Positions 4,065 through 49,172 of a DNA stretch of 64,000 nucleotides are shown in pieces (the first letter of the stretch is position 1; each line of letters begins with the position of its first letter). The notes under the pieces were generated by a model. The model saw only the letters and a program-made list of their open reading frames with translations, was not told the origin of the DNA and searched no databases. A program made the position numbers and the translations under genes. Source of the DNA: Naegleria gruberi (taxonomy: Eukaryota); NCBI GenBank assembly GCA_000004985.1, contig GG738921.1. One strand, written 5' to 3'.

Positions 4065-6358
4065 NNNNNNNNNNNNNNNNNNNNNNNNNNNNNNNNNNNN
4101 NNNNNNNNNNNNNNNNNNNNNNNNNNNNNNNNNNNNNNNNNNNNNNNNNNNNNNNNNNNNNNNNNNNNNNNNNNNNNNNNNNNNNNNNNNNNNNNNNNNN
4201 NNNNNNNNNNNNNNNNNNNNNNNNNNNNNNNNNNNNNNNNNNNNNNNNNNNNNNNNNNNNNNNNNNNNNNNNNNNNNNNNNNNNNNNNNNNNNNNNNNNN
4301 NNNNNNNNNNNNNNNNNNNNNNNNNNNNNNNNNNNNNNNNNNNNNNNNNNNNNNNNNNNNNNNNNNNNNNNNNNNNNNNNNNNNNNNNNNNNNNNNNNNN
4401 NNNNNNNNNNNNNNNNNNNNNNNNNNNNNNNNNNNNNNNNNNNNNNNNNNNNNNNNNNNNNNNNNNNNNNNNNNNNNNNNNNNNNNNNNNNNNNNNNNNN
4501 NNNNNNNNNNNNNNNNNNNNNNNNNNNNNNNNNNNNNNNNNNNNNNNNNNNNNNNNNNNNNNNNNNNNNNNNNNNNNNNNNNNNNNNNNNNNNNNNNNNN
4601 NNNNNNNNNNNNNNNNNNNNNNNNNNNNNNNNNNNNNNNNNNNNNNNNNNNNNNNNNNNNNNNNNNNNNNNNNNNNNNNNNNNNNNNNNNNNNNNNNNNN
4701 NNNNNNNNNNNNNNNNNNNNNNNNNNNNNNNNNNNNNNNNNNNNNNNNNNNNNNNNNNNNNNNNNNNNNNNNNNNNNNNNNNNNNNNNNNNNNNNNNNNN
4801 NNNNNNNNNNNNNNNNNNNNNNNNNNNNNNNNNNNNNNNNNNNNNNNNNNNNNNNNNNNNNNNNNNNNNNNNNNNNNNNNNNNNNNNNNNNNNNNNNNNN
4901 NNNNNNNNNNNNNNNNNNNNNNNNNNNNNNNNNNNNNNNNNNNNNNNNNNNNNNNNNNNNNNNNNNNNNNNNNNNNNNNNNNNNNNNNNNNNNNNNNNNN
5001 NNNNNNNNNNNNNNNNNNNNNNNNNNNNNNNNNNNNNNNNNNNNNNNNNNNNNNNNNNNNNNNNNNNNNNNNNNNNNNNNNNNNNNNNNNNNNNNNNNNN
5101 NNNNNNNNNNNNNNNNNNNNNNNNNNNNNNNNNNNNNNNNNNNNNNNNNNNNNNNNNNNNNNNNNNNNNNNNNNNNNNNNNNNNNNNNNNNNNNNNNNNN
5201 NNNNNNNNNNNNNNNNNNNNNNNNNNNNNNNNNNNNNNNNNNNNNNNNNNNNNNNNNNNNNNNNNNNNNNNNNNNNNNNNNNNNNNNNNNNNNNNNNNNN
5301 NNNNNNNNNNNNNNNNNNNNNNNNNNNNNNNNNNNNNNNNNNNNNNNNNNNNNNNNNNNNNNNNNNNNNNNNNNNNNNNNNNNNNNNNNNNNNNNNNNNN
5401 NNNNNNNNNNNNNNNNNNNNNNNNNNNNNNNNNNNNNNNNNNNNNNNNNNNNNNNNNNNNNNNNNNNNNNNNNNNNNNNNNNNNNNNNNNNNNNNNNNNN
5501 NNNNNNNNNNNNNNNNNNNNNNNNNNNNNNNNNNNNNNNNNNNNNNNNNNNNNNNNNNNNNNNNNNNNNNNNNNNNNNNNNNNNNNNNNNNNNNNNNNNN
5601 NNNNNNNNNNNNNNNNNNNNNNNNNNNNNNNNNNNNNNNNNNNNNNNNNNNNNNNNNNNNNNNNNNNNNNNNNNNNNNNNNNNNNNNNNNNNNNNNNNNN
5701 NNNNNNNNNNNNNNNNNNNNNNNNNNNNNNNNNNNNNNNNNNNNNNNNNNNNNNNNNNNNNNNNNNNNNNNNNNNNNNNNNNNNNNNNNNNNNNNNNNNN
5801 NNNNNNNNNNNNNNNNNNNNNNNNNNNNNNNNNNNNNNNNNNNNNNNNNNNNNNNNNNNNNNNNNNNNNNNNNNNNNNNNNNNNNNNNNNNNNNNNNNNN
5901 NNNNNNNNNNNNNNNNNNNNNNNNNNNNNNNNNNNNNNNNNNNNNNNNNNNNNNNNNNNNNNNNNNNNNNNNNNNNNNNNNNNNNNNNNNNNNNNNNNNN
6001 NNNNNNNNNNNNNNNNNNNNNNNNNNNNNNNNNNNNNNNNNNNNNNNNNNNNNNNNNNNNNNNNNNNNNNNNNNNNNNNNNNNNNNNNNNNNNNNNNNNN
6101 NNNNNNNNNNNNNNNNNNNNNNNNNNNNNNNNNNNNNNNNNNNNNNNNNNNNNNNNNNNNNNNNNNNNNNNNNNNNNNNNNNNNNNNNNNNNNNNNNNNN
6201 NNNNNNNNNNNNNNNNNNNNNNNNNNNNNNNNNNNNNNNNNNNNNNNNNNNNNNNNNNNNNNNNNNNNNNNNNNNNNNNNNNNNNNNNNNNNNNNNNNNN
6301 NNNNNNNNNNNNNNNNNNNNNNNNNNNNNNNNNNNNNNNNNNNNNNNNNNNNNNNNNN
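4065..6358. other. Assembly gap (N run, ~2.3 kb)
   Basis: Uninterrupted n characters. Confidence 0.99.
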
Positions 6359-11709: not shown

Positions 11710-11831
11710 NNNNNNNNNNNNNNNNNNNNNNNNNNNNNNNNNNNNNNNNNNNNNNNNNNNNNNNNNNNNNNNNNNNNNNNNNNNNNNNNNNNNNNNNNNN
11801 NNNNNNNNNNNNNNNNNNNNNNNNNNNNNNN
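11710..11831. other. Assembly gap
   Basis: N run. Confidence 0.99.
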
Positions 11832-31223: not shown

Positions 31224-31273
31224 NNNNNNNNNNNNNNNNNNNNNNNNNNNNNNNNNNNNNNNNNNNNNNNNNN
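31224..31273. other. Assembly gap (further 50-nt gaps at 32706..32755 and 42926..42975)
   Basis: N runs. Confidence 0.99.
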
Positions 31274-32697: not shown

Positions 32698-32755
32698 ATC
32701 AAGTGNNNNNNNNNNNNNNNNNNNNNNNNNNNNNNNNNNNNNNNNNNNNNNNNNN

Positions 32756-41121: not shown

Positions 41122-41866
41122 TTAAGCTGTAGTAGTGGTGTTTGAAGCAACTACTGGAGTAACAACAGTTTCAGTCTTCTTGGCCTTCTTAGATCCCTTC
41201 TTGACCTTCTTAACCTTCTTAGCACCCTTCTTAGCAGTCTTTTTTACCTTCTTAGCACCCTTCTTTGTACCCTTCTTGACCTTCTTGGCACCTTTCTTAG
41301 TGGACTTCTTAACCTTCTTAGCCTTCTTAGATCCCTTCTTGGCACCCTTCTTGACCTTCTTAACCTTCTTAGCAGTCTTCTTTGCCTTCTTAGTACCCTT
41401 CTTGGCAGATCTAACAGTCTTCTTTGCCTTCTTAGCACCCTTCTTGGTGGACTTCTTTGGTGTTTTCTTGACAGATCTTACAGTAGTCTTGGTGGACTTC
41501 TTGGCAACCTTCTTAACACCAGTTTTCTTTGGAGTCTTCTTTACAGATCTAACAGCAGTCTTCTTTGGGGAAGCCTTCTTGGTTGCCCTCTTTGTTGTTC
41601 TCTTGACAGATCTAACGGCCTTTGGCTTCTTTGGAGCAGCAACTCTAGTGGAGTTTCTTTGACTAAGAGTCTTGATAACGGTAGGTGGCTTCTTAGCTCT
41701 TGTGGTTTTAGTGGCTCTAACACCTCTAATTTTAGCCTTAGCCTCAGTCTTCCAATTGATAAGAATAAAAGCAACAATTAAAATTAGTACGTACAGCCAT
41801 AGTCATGCCGGCAACACAGGCCAACAAGGCAATCAAACACAATGTAAGGAAAAGCTTAGCACTCAT
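41122..41866 (-). CDS. Secreted poly-lysine/alanine repeat protein (signal peptide + ~200 aa of AKKGAKKVKK-type repeats), 2 exons
   Basis: Exon 1 is 41866..41795 (MSAKLFLTLCLIALLACVAGMTMA). A 46-nt GTACGT..GGAAG intron lies at 41749..41794. Exon 2 is 41748..41122 and is open to TAA. Lys is encoded almost exclusively by AAG, with GCT/GTT/ACT/GGT/AGA bias (a highly-expressed-gene codon pattern). The listed + strand ORF 41135..41662 is its antisense (FLAFLDPFL repeats). Confidence 0.55.
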
Positions 41867-42517: not shown

Positions 42518-42925
42518 ATGTTCAAGATCTCATTCGTCGAGTTTTCAACACCTCAAACAATTAAATCAGCCTTATCTTGTGAGGTCAAGAATAAGAACAA
42601 CAATTCTCCAAAGAAACGAGGACGACCACCAAAGAAGAAACAACAGGAAAGAGATTCAAAAGTTGTCACATCCTCAGAATCAATGAAAGATGCTCAAAAG
42701 AATGATGTAAATCATCCTGCTGTGATCTTGACCGAATGTAAGAAGAGGAAATTGGAGAATGTTTGTGAGCAATACAGAACTCCTCCATTGGTGGTTTCTC
42801 CTCCTTCACTGCATGTTGAGGAGGATTCTAATACTCAAGCAACAACAACAACATTAGCAAGGAATAGAAAAATTATAAGAACCTCAATATCGCTTAAAGA
42901 AATATTGAATTATAATGGACAACAA
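42518..42925 (+). CDS. AT-hook protein family member 1 (3' end in gap)
   Basis: It opens MFKISFVEFS, carries the AT-hook PKKRGRPPKKK, and then has RKIIRTSISLKEILN before N's at 42926. Confidence 0.5.
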
Positions 42926-42978
42926 NNNNNNNNNNNNNNNNNNNNNNNNNNNNNNNNNNNNNNNNNNNNNNNNNNAAA

Positions 42979-43486
42979 GATGTACATTAACAAATTCTCT
43001 ATTGTTGACTTTACTCCTGCTCAGAATATTCAAACAAAAACTACTGATTTACCAAAGAAGAGAGGTAGACCACCTAAGAATTCACCACATGCAAACAAAT
43101 CAATGTTTATTAGGTCAACTGAGACAATGCCAATGAGGTATGAATTGACGAATAGAATGACAGACCAATTCAAGAAGGATAAACGAAGAAGAAGGGAAAA
43201 GAAAGCATGTAATAGTCCAAACACATCTAATTGCTCCACATCTAGTAGTACATCATCTTTGACTATTGTGCAAGAATTGAATAATTGTTTAGTTTCAGAC
43301 ACATTAGTTTCGTCTCTTCCAACAACGCATGCATCCACTCCTCAATCTAATATCACTACCACTAACGACAATACAACAACACATCTAGAATCCAATCTTA
43401 TCACCTCCAACAATAACAACACATCCAATTATAAACCTCCAAGAAAGATAAGATATTCGATATCCATCCAAGAATTATTAAATTGA
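42979..43486 (+). CDS. AT-hook protein family member 2
   Basis: The N-terminus is MYINKFSIVDFTP, the AT-hook is LPKKRGRPPKNSP, and the C-terminus is PPRKIRYSISIQELLN*. Confidence 0.55.
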
Positions 43487-44081
43487 AACTATTCCAATAT
43501 TAATACTAATTAGATGTAATATTTCAAAAAGATGCGTTTTGGAAAGGTAGATGCTTTTTTACGCGATTTCCTTTCAGTAGCTATCACACATGTGTTTCGA
43601 ATCGTTTCGAATAATAGTGCAGAGGACAAATAAATCACCTCTTTCATTATCACTCACAATACAAAATACATGCATGTGTCATCTTCTTGTTGGTCCTTTT
43701 ATCAACAGAAAGTACATGAGAATCGAATAGATGAAGAGGTTTAGTTTGTGAAGGATGTGTGAAATAATTTTTTTAATAAATCAAATTCTACTAACTGTGG
43801 ATTCTTTAGCACTACTAGCACAAATTACGGAGACCAATCTTCAATTAGTTTCTCACCTTGCCGCCTTTCTAATTTTGTCCTTTAGCCAATTCAAGAATGT
43901 TAAAAGTTTTTCGTTGAGGGGATTCTTATCAAGGGTTCTCTCCTTAGTAATACTGTACAATACAATGCCAGCTACAAGAATAAATAAGCTCTCAATATCA
44001 AGGTTCGATAATTTTTGTTGGAAAGCAGGTCCAGCAATAAATCTTTAAAAAAATCAATTATTCGAAAGTAAACTAAATTAC

Positions 44082-45274
44082 TTACGGAATCATAAAGAAG
44101 AGATTGGACATTACCAAACGAGAAGTTAGAGCAATCATGGCCAAAGTTGAAGATCCATGCTTGAAAACAACCAATTGAGTAACATTAAATAAAACATTGA
44201 AAACTTCAAATAAAATTGCAACCCAATAAACTCCATCACAAATGTCACCCTTCAAAGAATTCATTCCAACAACACATTTCAATGAATATAACATGTAATT
44301 AGGTAGGTCAGAAGCAGATTTCACAATACTATTTGGATTCCAAGGAATTAATAAAAATGGAATGAAAAATAAAATTCCAAATAATAATTGAAATAATTCA
44401 ATCCATGCGACCATATAGAAAACATCTAATTTCTCCTTTTTTAGATAATGTTCAATGTAAACATTGGCAATGGCTTGGAAAAATGTGGAAATTAATAGAA
44501 CGAGAGCCCAAATCCATTCTGTTGAGCTAGTTCCAGACCTTCCTGAAAGAAATAAAGGCAAAACATTTAAAATTACTCCAATGATTACAATAAAAGTTCC
44601 TCCAAATTGTAGAATATTATATCTCACCGATAAGAATATCATGGAAACGAGCATATTATTGATGATAATGGTTTGATTCATTGCCACGTTTACACTACCT
44701 GAAACATTTGATGAGGCAATGACCAATATCAAGTTTGCTAAATTCGTTAAAAATCCCATAATTACAAACTATTCCAATAATTGATTAGAAACATTCCTCC
44801 CATTTGAAAACATACTCTATAAACAGGAAATTTTCTCATTTCCTTTGTAACACTCCTAGTTCCAAACATTTTAAACCAAGCAATTGGCCAATAAACAATA
44901 TTTGACATGGTTGGAATTAAAATCGATGACAGGAAATATCCATAATGTTTCATTTGTGTTGACAATCTAACAATCAGAACAAAATTAATAGATCTAGAGA
45001 AGGCCATCACCAAAACCACCAAACACAAGGCCCCAAACACAACATACTTGTTGGTGTGAAGGAAATTCCTCACAGCACCTAAATTCCTTCGGAATGTTGA
45101 AGTTGTGTGAATTTGCATCTCACAATTATTGACATTTCCTTGAACAGAATTCTGATAACCAGGATCCTGAACCTCAACATGAAGACCTTGTTGCAGTTGT
45201 GAATTATTGTCGTTATGTAGTGATGGAACAATCAAGGGCACATGTTCATCATCTTTTCGTGCCATTTTTTTCAC
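44082..45274 (-). CDS. CRT-like (chloroquine-resistance-transporter family, DMT superfamily) membrane transporter, 2 exons
   Basis: The exons are 45274..44816 and 44768..44082, with a 47-nt GTATGT..GGAATAG intron at 44769..44815. The protein has multiple TM segments, including NVYIEHYLKKEKLDVFYMVAWIELFQLLFGILFFIPFLLIPW. Confidence 0.65.
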
Positions 45275-45726
45275 ATCAGGAAAAATTGTCGTTTTTCTTA
45301 AGGTTCACAAGGAGTCTAGTTATGTTTTGGAAACAAGTATTGAATTTAAATTAGCCGGCTCCAGTTATGACTCATTATTTTGTTATGACTTTACGAAGAT
45401 AATTATTGGCAAAGAGAAAGATCACTCAAGAAAACAAACCATTCTATCATCAAATGAAAAGTGAGAACACTTTCAAACTGAATGAAGGAGGGCTTCTATT
45501 AATCAACTTATTTCATATAACCAACAAGAACAAAAGAGGAAATGTGTCCACTGTTTTAAAATGACTACACATGGACAAGTGTCCCCGACCTAATAATAAT
45601 TATGAACAAAATTTCTTCCTTTTCTGAAGCGATTTTCAAAGTCCATAGGCTAAAACCCAAAAGACTTCAGACCTACAGCCAATTTTAAAGATTAATTCAT
45701 ATAATATTTATGATTAAGAATGGATA

Positions 45727-46500
45727 GTGAGAGCATTTTATCACTATTCACAAATAAAAAATTAATTACACAAATTTTTTGTGAATATTTGTGGTAAAAT
45801 ATTTTCACAAATTTGTGTTTGTGTTTGTGTAGACAGGCCATTTTATCTTGCACAAATACATATTTTTATTAAAATTATTCCAACTAATGTCTATCTCAAT
45901 AGAAGGTATAAGTTGAAATCAGAAAGTAATTTCTACAATATGTTGATTCGAATGTAATGTATCCTAATTTAATTAGTGATGATGGAGTTGGTTCTGGTGG
46001 TGCGGAATCAATGAAAGCATGCTCCAAAAACAAACTGTTTTGTTCCAAATATTTAATTATTCCATCTGTTACTGCTTTCCCTCTTTATTTCACTTGAATC
46101 TTGGGTTGTTGGTGGTGTTGATGTTGGTTTCTCTGATGAAGGTTCTTCTTACATTTTTTAATATTTAATTAATAAAAAATGTATTAAACTTCTCCTTCAT
46201 CAAACGGGAGAAGAAATCAGCAACCATTAGAACCCGATTCATGTCCAATTCTTGCAACAACAATATTGATATCGGATCACATATTTCAAGATCAACGACG
46301 AATGAACTTTTACTACTAGATTCAAAGAAAACAACCTAAGATTCAAGACCAACAATAATTTATTATTTTAATAAAATACTTTTGTGTTTTCACAAATATT
46401 TGTGCAAGATAAAATGGTCTGTCTACACAAACACAAATCACAAATTTTTAAATCTGTGTAATTAATTTTTATTTGTGTTTAGAGATAAAATGCTCTCAGT
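45727..46500. mobile_element. Non-autonomous TIR DNA transposon (MITE-like), ~775 bp with ~120-bp terminal inverted repeats
   Basis: The left arm at 45727..~45850 is GTGAGAGCATTTTATCACTATTCACAAATAAAAAATTAATTACACAAATTTTTTGTG...GTGTTTGTGTTTGTGTAGACAGGCCATTTTATCTTGCACAAATA. It is the near-perfect reverse complement of the right arm at ~46375..46500, with a handful of mismatches. The ~520-bp internal region has no long ORF. Confidence 0.6.
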
Positions 46501-47311
46501 GTCCTGTTATTATGAAAGTTGCAGTTTGCCATGAAATCTATTGTAACAAATAAAGACCACTCAACAAGCAATCATTTGACACTTCTGTAATACATAAAAG
46601 AGCACAAATTATGAAAATCCTAAAATCACAGATACTATCATGTTCCTGTTAGCAATGAATTGTATAACTCAATTTGAGGACATATTTCAATCAATAATAA
46701 TATTCTCCATATTGAACTGTTTTTAGCCTTGTCATGCTAGTTGTGTTTCATATTCCTCTCCAATTTCATTAAGAACAGTTTTAGCACAGTACTATTATAT
46801 TGACACTCCCATTGTCAGATAAGGCGACAAAACCCTTTTCTGCCTTAATACTCCCTTCCCTCATTCAAGTGGGTAAATCTGAAATTTCTGCTGACTTTTG
46901 GAAGGCGGTTATTGACGCTAAGGAGCTTTGTGTGTAAACATGTAAAGTATTTTCAAATAAAGAAGTCCTCAAATGGAAATTCTGCTGGTTAAATGTGTAT
47001 TTGCGGTTTTAATGCACCCTTATTAAGGCAGTGACAGGAGGCGTATCCAATGGAGGATCACAATTAAATAATGGCACTTTAATTAAATCGTCATATTTGG
47101 CCATCCTTAACATCAGGTACGGGCAGTTAGAGGATACGAAATATTTAAATGTCTGTCCTGCGACACACATCCCCCAATGCTATTAGAGCTTGTGTGTTTG
47201 AATTGGATTAAGAGTAAGCAAAAATCTCTTCATCAACCTTCTCGTTTCACAAAATTTCACACACACACGAAGAGTTATAATTCTTCCATTTTCAATTACA
47301 GAAAAAAAAAT

Positions 47312-47851
47312 ATGTATAGCAAATTCTCAATCGTTCAATTTACAACACTCAGCTATATTCAGCCATCACATCAGGACAGCAACTGCCTGTGTATGGATGT
47401 TTCTTCTTCAAACAATTCAGCTAAAAATCCACTCTCCATTGGTCATAATCATGTTGAACTGATGCCAAAGAAGAGAGGAAGACCTATTAAGAATGAACCA
47501 AAATCCAACACCCAAATGGTAATTACCTCAACAGAAAGTTTGTTATGTCGGTCAATGAGCAATCGTCAAACAAATGTTACAAAGAGACAACACAGAGACA
47601 GTACATGTTGGGAGAGAAGAGTGAAACCAAAACCTGCAACAGTTACATCTCCTTCATCATCAATGGATATGCATACATGTATTAGCAATACTCCTTCAAT
47701 GCTCAATAGCCATACATATAATTACTCACAACCAGCAACAAGTATTCATGTTGAAAGCGAGGAGTTGCCTGCTTCTCCACATGGAACTGTGCAAATCTCC
47801 AAGAAGAGAATAATAAGAAGTTCGATATCAATTAAGGAATTGCTTAATTAA
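47312..47851 (+). CDS. AT-hook protein family member 3
   Basis: The N-terminus is MYSKFSIVQFTT, the AT-hook is MPKKRGRPIKNEP, and the C-terminus is KKRIIRSSISIKELLN*. Confidence 0.55.
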   Translation: MYSKFSIVQFTTLSYIQPSHQDSNCLCMDVSSSNNSAKNPLSIGHNHVELMPKKRGRPIKNEPKSNTQMVITSTESLLCRSMSNRQTNVTKRQHRDSTCWERRVKPKPATVTSPSSSMDMHTCISNTPSMLNSHTYNYSQPATSIHVESEELPASPHGTVQISKKRIIRSSISIKELLN

Positions 47852-48428: not shown

Positions 48429-49172
48429 ATGTCATCAGATCAAGTTTACGAAGATTCTTTAACCCCAGAGCAATCTAGAACTTTACGTTATTTCTCTGCT
48501 GCCAAGAGAGGACAAGTTTTGGAAATCCAAGAATTGCTTCAAGAAGATCCAAAGTTTAATACAGGAGCCTTGGATGAATTTGGAAATAATGCATTGGTGA
48601 GTTTTATGATGATGATAATGATTTAATTAACCATTATTATGTGATCTTTTTGTGGTGTATCATTTCCGATCATTGTCTCTCACTGCTGATCAATTATATT
48701 ATTCCTCTCCTATTTATTTGTTCATGATTTTACTTAATTTTGTTTTTTTTTGATTCTTCAACACCAATTAATGTTTTTTTGATCGATGTAAAATGTTTTA
48801 CAATCATGAATACTGCTTTTTCATATGAAATTGAATAATATTTTGATAATAATAATAATATTATTATGTGAGTAGCATTGGGCAGCTGGTGCTGGTCACT
48901 TGGATTGTGTTAAATTCCTTGTTGAAACTGTCAAGTTGTCAATTGATGCTATCAACAAACAAGGTGATACTCCTCTTCACAAGGCAACATGGAGAGGTGC
49001 TTTGGATGTTGTTAAATATCTTGTCGAAAAGGACGCTAAATTAGATGTTGTGAATGGTCAAAAGAAGAGACCAGTCGATTTGGCTCATCACTTGGAAGTC
49101 AAGTCCTATTTACAATCATATGAAGGAGGTGATGATGAAGACGATGAAGATGACGAAGATGAAGATGAATAA
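48429..49172 (+). CDS. Small ankyrin-repeat protein with acidic C-terminal tail, 2 exons (intron 48597..48875)
   Basis: Exon 1 ends ...GNNAL at 48596 (TTG|GTGAGT). Exon 2 opens HWAAGAGHLDCVKFLVE (ANK consensus) after ..TGTGAGTAG, includes GDTPLHKATWRGALDVVKYLVEKDAKLD, and ends in a DDEDDEDDEDEDE tail. Confidence 0.65.

Follow-up and report, generated by a model that had tools for sequence, protein, structure and literature searches.

What are the proteins encoded by a cluster of small AT-hook genes in Naegleria gruberi, and do the short peptides that they share mark a family with a function of its own? The stretch analyzed here (hereafter the window) comprises 64,000 nucleotides of contig GG738921.1 (assembly GCA_000004985.1), and the cluster consists of three open reading frames (ORFs) on its plus strand between positions 42518 and 47851, termed copies 1 to 3. 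We found that the three genes belong to a real, undescribed, lineage-restricted family within the AT-hook proteins, in which one hook is combined with three short conserved peptide blocks, an arrangement undescribed in Pfam, the PDB, or the searched literature. As to function, the motifs lead us to favor, by a little, a reading in which the products are chromatin adaptors that carry one AT hook and would dock a partner through a C-terminal helix, and not purely architectural proteins.

Copy 1 spans 42518-42925, of which 42518-42910 encode the family-conserved protein of 131 residues, with an N-terminal motif KISFVEF (42524-42544), an AT hook PKKRGRPPK (42608-42634), a post-hook block KVVTSSE (42659-42679), and a C-terminal motif RKIIRTSISLKEILN (42866-42910). 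Copy 2 (42980-43486; 168 residues plus the stop TGA at 43484-43486) has the corresponding elements KFSIVDF (42992-43012), PKKRGRPPK (43052-43078), MFIRSTE (43103-43123), and PRKIRYSISIQELLN (43439-43483). In copy 3 (47312-47851; 179 residues plus the stop TAA at 47849-47851) they read KFSIVQF (47321-47341), PKKRGRPIK (47465-47491), MVITSTE (47516-47536), and KRIIRSSISIKELLN (47804-47848). Copy 3 is an exact match to NAEGRDRAFT_75105 (XP_002669870), annotated as a "predicted protein" on a 207-kb N. gruberi scaffold. A six-frame regular-expression scan of the 64-kb window returned exactly three RGRP cores, one in each of these ORFs, and the N- and C-terminal motifs were confined to the same three ORFs. 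The original prediction, made from the letters of the window, had placed the three starts at 42518, 42979, and 47312; the first and third stand, while copy 2 begins at 42980. Its single canonical hook per copy and its conserved N-terminal motif were both recovered as described.

Before any function is considered, it has to be asked whether the copies are genes at all, as they could be assembly duplicates or chance ORFs. A scaffold gap of 50 N (42926-42975) does separate copies 1 and 2, and the deposited gene model that crosses it is chimeric, both of which would suit an artifact. However, protein identity among the three copies is just 32-43% (32-41% for copies 2 and 3 against copy 1), and when each locus was compared at the DNA level together with 1-1.5 kb of flank, the flanks did not match one another; likeness was restricted to stretches of 29-71 nucleotides, at 73-83% identity, which code for the hook and for the C-terminal blocks. 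At conserved residues the copies use different synonymous codons (Ser TCA/TCG/TCC/TCT/AGC, Ile ATA/ATT/ATC, Leu TTA/TTG/CTT, and Arg CGA/AGA); therefore, the similarity is maintained at the peptide level. In addition, an independent assembly of a sister strain (ERZ929261/ERR1078381), two contigs of which are 96-97% identical to the window in DNA, holds orthologs with intact ORFs and matching start and stop positions, and paralogs occur on at least six other scaffolds. The divergent copies, unrelated flanks, intact orthologs, dispersed paralogs, and synonymous codons together refute the artifact, which we regard as extremely unlikely. Relative to the 96%-identical strain, every indel in copies 1 and 2 is in frame, and the ratio of nonsynonymous to synonymous substitution rates, calculated from few substitutions, amounts to 0.31 and 0.27, respectively. 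The genes are real, purifying selection acts on their short peptide blocks, and the three copies are old paralogs that arose by duplications, partly in tandem. The original prediction had called them true paralogs with diverged middles and had raised assembly duplicates with identical flanks as the finding that would count against it; the copies are indeed one family at 32-43% identity, and their flanks are dissimilar.

The comparison with the sister strain also bears on how copy 1 ends. The codon that follows ...KEILN (42911-42913) is TAT in the window and the stop codon TAG in the 96%-identical strain; past this TAT, the frame reads YNGQQ and then runs into the 50-N gap, and a second mismatch to the sister strain falls within the final 20 nucleotides before the gap. 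The TAT may reflect either a sequencing error at the edge of the contig or a genuine read-through allele, which would bury the C-terminal motif. The original prediction had located this motif at the extreme C-terminus of all three proteins, which is the case in copies 2 and 3 but not in copy 1 as assembled, where the frame continues. In ERZ929261, the copy 1 ortholog (P0004; 131 residues, 92% identical) ends with ...KEILN followed by TAG, the copy 2 ortholog (P0002) shows 97% DNA identity, and the two are carried as separate genes. The sister-strain contig L001 continues for 521 bp beyond the copy 1 stop and contig L003 supplies 346 bp upstream of the copy 2 ATG, all missing from the window; because these extensions do not overlap, the intergenic DNA concealed by the gap must amount to at least ~870 bp. 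NAEGRDRAFT_75103 (P0013; 252 residues), the gene model deposited for this region, is a chimera in which copy 1, as far as ...SPPSLH, is spliced over the gap to copy 2, from NIQTKTT... onward, by a false intron. Elsewhere in the window, further runs of N lie at 4065-6358 (the largest, 2,294 bp), 11710-11831, 31224-31273, and 32706-32755, and gene models near them may be unreliable in the same way.

The extent of the family was assessed by a profile search of a 5.8-billion-protein collection and by an exhaustive hidden Markov model (HMM) search of 1.84 billion representatives. The profile search returned N. gruberi paralogs on other scaffolds at E values from 9e-80 to 3e-6, and N. gruberi NEG-M was found to have at least 11 family genes, which are covered by 10 gene models and spread over seven or more scaffolds, with all N. 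gruberi members annotated as "predicted protein." Beyond the cluster, these members are NAEGRDRAFT_76067, a close relative of copy 2 on a different scaffold, together with NAEGRDRAFT_73527, 61743, 82132, 81683, and 76321, P0038, and P0040; NAEGRDRAFT_82132, 81683, and 76321 were gained by the exhaustive HMM search, as were more members from ERZ929261. The orthologs and extra paralogs of that assembly are P0002, P0004, P0006, P0009, P0020, P0022, P0031, and P0039, and one more distant member (P0005) comes from Logan run SRR25266754, on a contig whose neighboring genes differ from those of the window. The exhaustive search of the 1.84 billion representatives found no members outside these three sources, the remaining matches being unrelated multi-AT-hook proteins that align at the hook columns only. 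The family is thus known so far from N. gruberi-like sequence only, and small ORFs elsewhere in Naegleria may be unannotated. NAEGRDRAFT_82132 (P0015) and P0040 share a 174,974-bp N. gruberi scaffold and may form a second cluster.

Other sources gave no relatives: contigs of JGI metagenomes yielded pattern matches but no relatives, and IMG/VR likewise held none. A profile of the C-terminal 40 residues, used to seek other proteins that have this peptide alone, drew 29 candidates by shared words, and none of them reached E≤10; the size of the database makes this result uninformative. A viral or mobile origin was considered and rejected, as IMG/VR holds no relatives and the nearby inverted-repeat element excludes the genes. 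The upstream regions share only a run of A before the ATG, which is uninformative in an AT-rich genome. The original prediction had suggested HMM or BLAST searches across Amoebozoa; the host lineage is Heterolobosea, which makes Amoebozoa the wrong group to search. Its view that no described family is involved agrees with what we found, namely no Pfam match above threshold, no PDB match beyond the hook of GLYR1, no paper on the family in the searched literature (none names the family locus tags), and no known domain matching the conserved ends.

Alignment of 20 family sequences resolves four blocks in constant order (residues are numbered here as in copy 3). Block i, [KR]-F-S-[IV]-[VI]-[EDQ]-F, falls inside the first 20 residues of every member but one (19 of 20). 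Block ii is the AT hook, P-K-K-R-G-R-P-x-K, with RGRK in four members. Block iii, M-x-[IV]-x-[STK]-[ST]-[ED], follows 12-19 residues past the RGR core, most often 14, and this block, which in a narrower form reads M-x-I-x-[ST]-[ST]-E, was overlooked by the original prediction, whose other conserved modules, the hook and both ends, stand. Block iv, R-x-x-R-[TSY]-S-I-S-[IL]-[KRQ]-[ED]-[LI]-L-N, makes up the final residues in every member, all 20 terminating exactly at ...LN. Mean column identity over the whole alignment is 23%; F10, R-G-R, R169, I172, L178, and N179 are invariant, and conservation is 90% or higher at K4, S6, E75, S171, S173, and E176. The distance from the N-terminal motif to the hook is variable (17-51 residues, against 12-19 from the hook to block iii), and the linkers, which vary in length, are rich in S, T, and N (23-41%). 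The proteins range from 121 to 263 residues, and all are basic (isoelectric points of 9.1-10.6). Blocks i and iv also resemble each other, as [FI]-S-I-x-E-[FL], a likeness absent from the original prediction.

Predicted structures assign different forms to these blocks. AlphaFold2 was run on two targets, copy 3 and P0006, both with the 20-sequence alignment. The model of copy 3 has predicted strands at residues 6-11 (block i) and 70-76 (block iii) and a predicted helix at 174-178 (block iv), and that of P0006 has predicted strands at 4-12 and 59-68 and a predicted helix at 138-142 in the same blocks. The rest is disordered in both models, falling below 70 in predicted local distance difference test (pLDDT) in copy 3; over both models the blocks reach a pLDDT of 72-84 (74-84 in P0006), with the C-terminal motif highest at ~83-84. 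The two strands must pair with each other because they are the only strands in each model. A Foldseek comparison with the PDB gave no match. As AlphaFold2 twice pairs block i with block iii, the N-terminal block looks more like a structural part, or one that serves dimerization, than like a linear motif in its own right, and only the C-terminal peptide would behave as a short linear docking motif. We treat the predicted strand pairing as a lead and not as a result.

Taken together, the blocks suggest the following mechanism for a chromatin adaptor: (i) the AT hook would insert into the minor groove of AT-rich DNA, by analogy with known hooks and in a genome of ~33% GC, and probably doubles as a nuclear localization signal; (ii) the predicted strands of blocks i and iii would form a small beta-ribbon framing the hook; and (iii) the amphipathic helix of block iv with its free carboxylate (R-x-S-I-S-I-x-E-L-L-N-COOH) would dock a partner protein. 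A sheet of two strands would probably not be stable on its own, so the strand pairing in (ii) may equally be intermolecular, and such pairing would give homo- or heterodimers with two hooks, compensating for the weak affinity of a single one. Ahead of the block iv helix, the basic R-x-x-R-x-S is, judged from its sequence, a candidate phosphorylation site for a basophilic kinase. The partner-binding or localization module that the original prediction had proposed for the conserved ends remains an inference.

Several observations weigh against this adaptor reading and fall on the DNA-binding part, the structural models, and the docking part in turn. A lone AT hook binds DNA weakly, as is known from HMGA proteins; four of the 20 members have RGRK instead of RGRP; and the Pfam AT_hook model (PF02178) scores copy 1 at 13.1 bits (E = 0.094), under its gathering threshold of 17.4, and matches neither copy 2 nor copy 3 at E≤1. 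Overall confidence in the AlphaFold2 models is low (mean pLDDT of 55 and 61, predicted template modeling scores of 0.2-0.28), and the strand pairing lacks independent confirmation because both runs used the same shallow alignment. Copy 1 as assembled appears to be without a free C-terminus, and the searched literature holds no localization, DNA-binding, or expression data for the family, with no family matches in a copper-proteomics supplement. As for the hook itself, the Pfam model has only 13 positions, so that the sub-threshold score reflects low information content and not a missing motif. The core of a canonical hook, an R followed by G-R-P with K/R and P flanks, is found as PKKRGRP[PI]K in all three copies, and RGRP is kept in 16 of the 20 family sequences. 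The Pfam scan of the three proteins gave no other domain at E≤1, and the only match in a PDB profile search was the AT hook of GLYR1.

These same data bear on whether the hook region might bind RNA, or the proteins be nucleolar or cytoplasmic, so that they may not be minor-groove DNA binders at all. Extended AT-hook-like motifs with an RNA preference exist, and the RGRK(R/T)R of four members, like the sub-threshold AT_hook score, would fit such a protein. We consider this highly unlikely, given that the P-K-K-R-G-R-P-x-K core typical of DNA-binding hooks is kept in 16 of 20 members and that this core matches the hook of GLYR1.

If the proteins do bind DNA, they might still be purely architectural and HMGA-like, with ends that serve only for self-association among paralogs, raising hook valency, and with no external partner. 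The products are small, basic, and disordered around a canonical AT-hook core, identical interface motifs recur in many paralogs, and beta pairing of two short strands is likelier between molecules than within one. In contrast, there is one hook and not three, with no acidic tail; every one of the 20 members terminates with the C-terminal motif, suggesting a dedicated pocket for the free carboxylate; and this motif is predicted as a separate helix that lies outside the sheet. A purely architectural role is therefore, in our judgment, unlikely, and the adaptor with a docking helix remains the reading that we favor.

What such a helix might dock to can be approached from the repressors of other eukaryotes. 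Outside Holozoa, a Groucho-like WD40 protein is reported from only two organisms, of which N. gruberi is one; this species has a Tup protein as well, and no eh1 or WRPW motif was found on Naegleria transcription-factor domains (Copley 2016, PMC4943189). The family could thus comprise corepressor adaptors, in which the C-terminal helix, and possibly the N-terminal motif, would be eh1/Tup1-type motifs docking Groucho-like or Tup WD40 proteins and the hook would bring repression to DNA. The presence of both corepressors in the genome favors this (PMC4943189), and so do several features of the C-terminal motif. The eh1 consensus is FS[VI]xx[IL][LM], and an N-terminal IxIxxLL of MATalpha2 contacts Tup1 (PMC4943189); I-S-I-K-E-L-L-N matches the IxIxxLL spacing. 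Set against the TN motif of NK-class proteins, TPFSVKDILNLE (PMC2570084), T-S-I-S-I-K-E-L-L-N has 5 identities and 4 conservative replacements in 10 positions. The motif is predicted to be helical, as bound eh1 is (PMC1939712), and eh1-like motifs occur at the extreme N- or C-termini of ces-1, bowl, and odd (PMC1310626).

The sequence match to eh1 was then quantified. A position-specific scoring matrix was built from 81 different eh1 octamers of Fox proteins, taken from PMC1939712. Real eh1 motifs reach 8.9-23.4 bits on it and the family motifs only -7 to +1 bits, and the per-octamer p values of the latter, 0.002-0.03, correspond to about one chance match per protein. Where eh1 has a near-invariant Phe, at position 0, the C-terminal motif has Ile, and positions 5 and 6 of the N-terminal motif are F and T/S/A and not [IL][LM]; a pattern without F/Y is, according to Copley, poorly specified (PMC4943189). 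The short amphipathic helix characteristic of eh1 is found for the C-terminal motif in both AlphaFold2 models, while the N-terminal motif is predicted as a strand and not a helix. Membership of the eh1 class is rejected, as the family motifs fail the matrix and lack the Phe at position 0 or the hydrophobic pair. Overall, corepressor adaptors of this type appear quite unlikely. The narrower proposal, in which the family would provide DNA-tethering partners of the Naegleria Groucho-like or Tup corepressors through a divergent eh1/IxIxxLL C-terminal helix, draws on analogy and is decidedly doubtful. Such a family would have escaped Copley's search because its sole DNA-binding element is a sub-threshold AT hook.

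The cluster is interspersed with other elements. Copies 2 and 3 enclose a minus-strand gene for a CRT-like transporter (44082-45274; PF08627, E = 1.4e-33). Its coding sequence falls into two ORFs whose frames differ (44762-45274 and 44082-44759), probably owing to a short intron or a frameshift at ~44760. Between this gene and copy 3, a 783-bp inverted-repeat element (45722-46504) has terminal arms of ~137 nucleotides that are 86-95% complementary; it contains no long ORF and has no second copy in the 64-kb window. It is plausibly a miniature inverted-repeat transposable element (MITE) or a foldback element, and the CRT-like gene and MITE that the original prediction had seen between the copies can accordingly be retained, the latter as plausible. 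Upstream of copy 1 and divergently transcribed, a gene at 41122-41866 (minus strand) has a signal-peptide-like start, MSAKLFLTLCLIALLACVAGMTMA, a 46-nucleotide GTACGT...AG intron, and ~210 residues of lysine-rich KKxAKK/VRSVKK repeats with a DNA periodicity of 9-42 nucleotides; going by its sequence, the product could be an H1-tail-like or a secreted polycationic protein. Downstream, an ankyrin-repeat gene on the plus strand (48429-49172; Pfam Ank_4, E = 2e-13) ends in a run of acidic D/E residues, for which the coding DNA is a tandem repeat of GAT/GAA. As its reading frame is broken into several ORF pieces, this gene probably contains introns.

In a deep-branching eukaryote, the family would join a DNA tether to a docking peptide in a compact form that lends itself to testing. 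It is also a concrete candidate for corepressor recruitment in Naegleria, for which Copley (PMC4943189) could not find the motifs; if this doubtful proposal were true, short-motif recruitment of Groucho/Tup would extend to a discoban (excavate) lineage, by way of an AT hook and not a folded domain, and would bear on whether such repression reaches back to the last eukaryotic common ancestor. As a practical outcome, the chimeric model NAEGRDRAFT_75103 is corrected and attention is drawn to a contig edge where the stop codon is in doubt.

The family can be compared with several known systems. With the HMGA proteins of animals it shares small size, basic charge, disorder, an R-G-R-P core with K/R and P flanks, and presumably an AT-rich minor-groove target. 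However, HMGA proteins have three hooks and an acidic C-terminal tail, whereas the family has a single RGR[PK] and no acidic tail; it has instead a predicted N-terminal strand, a predicted post-hook strand, and a predicted hydrophobic C-terminal helix, with no homology beyond the hook. The metazoan homeobox, Fox, and T-box repressors with Groucho/TLE-binding eh1 or TN motifs are similar in carrying a short amphipathic S-I-x-x-L-L core, often terminal, on a DNA-binding element, but in the family the DNA-binding part is an AT hook and not a folded domain. In MATalpha2, the family's I-S-I-x-E-L-L has an exact counterpart in the IxIxxLL spacing (PMC4943189), although the yeast motif is N-terminal and defined by three mutated residues, and the pattern is too loose for statistics and implies no homology. 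Finally, the plant AHL proteins likewise combine one or two AT hooks with a conserved interaction module in a lineage-expanded family; in contrast to the PPC/DUF296 domain of AHL proteins, for which the N. gruberi family is Pfam-negative, the module used here consists of short peptides.

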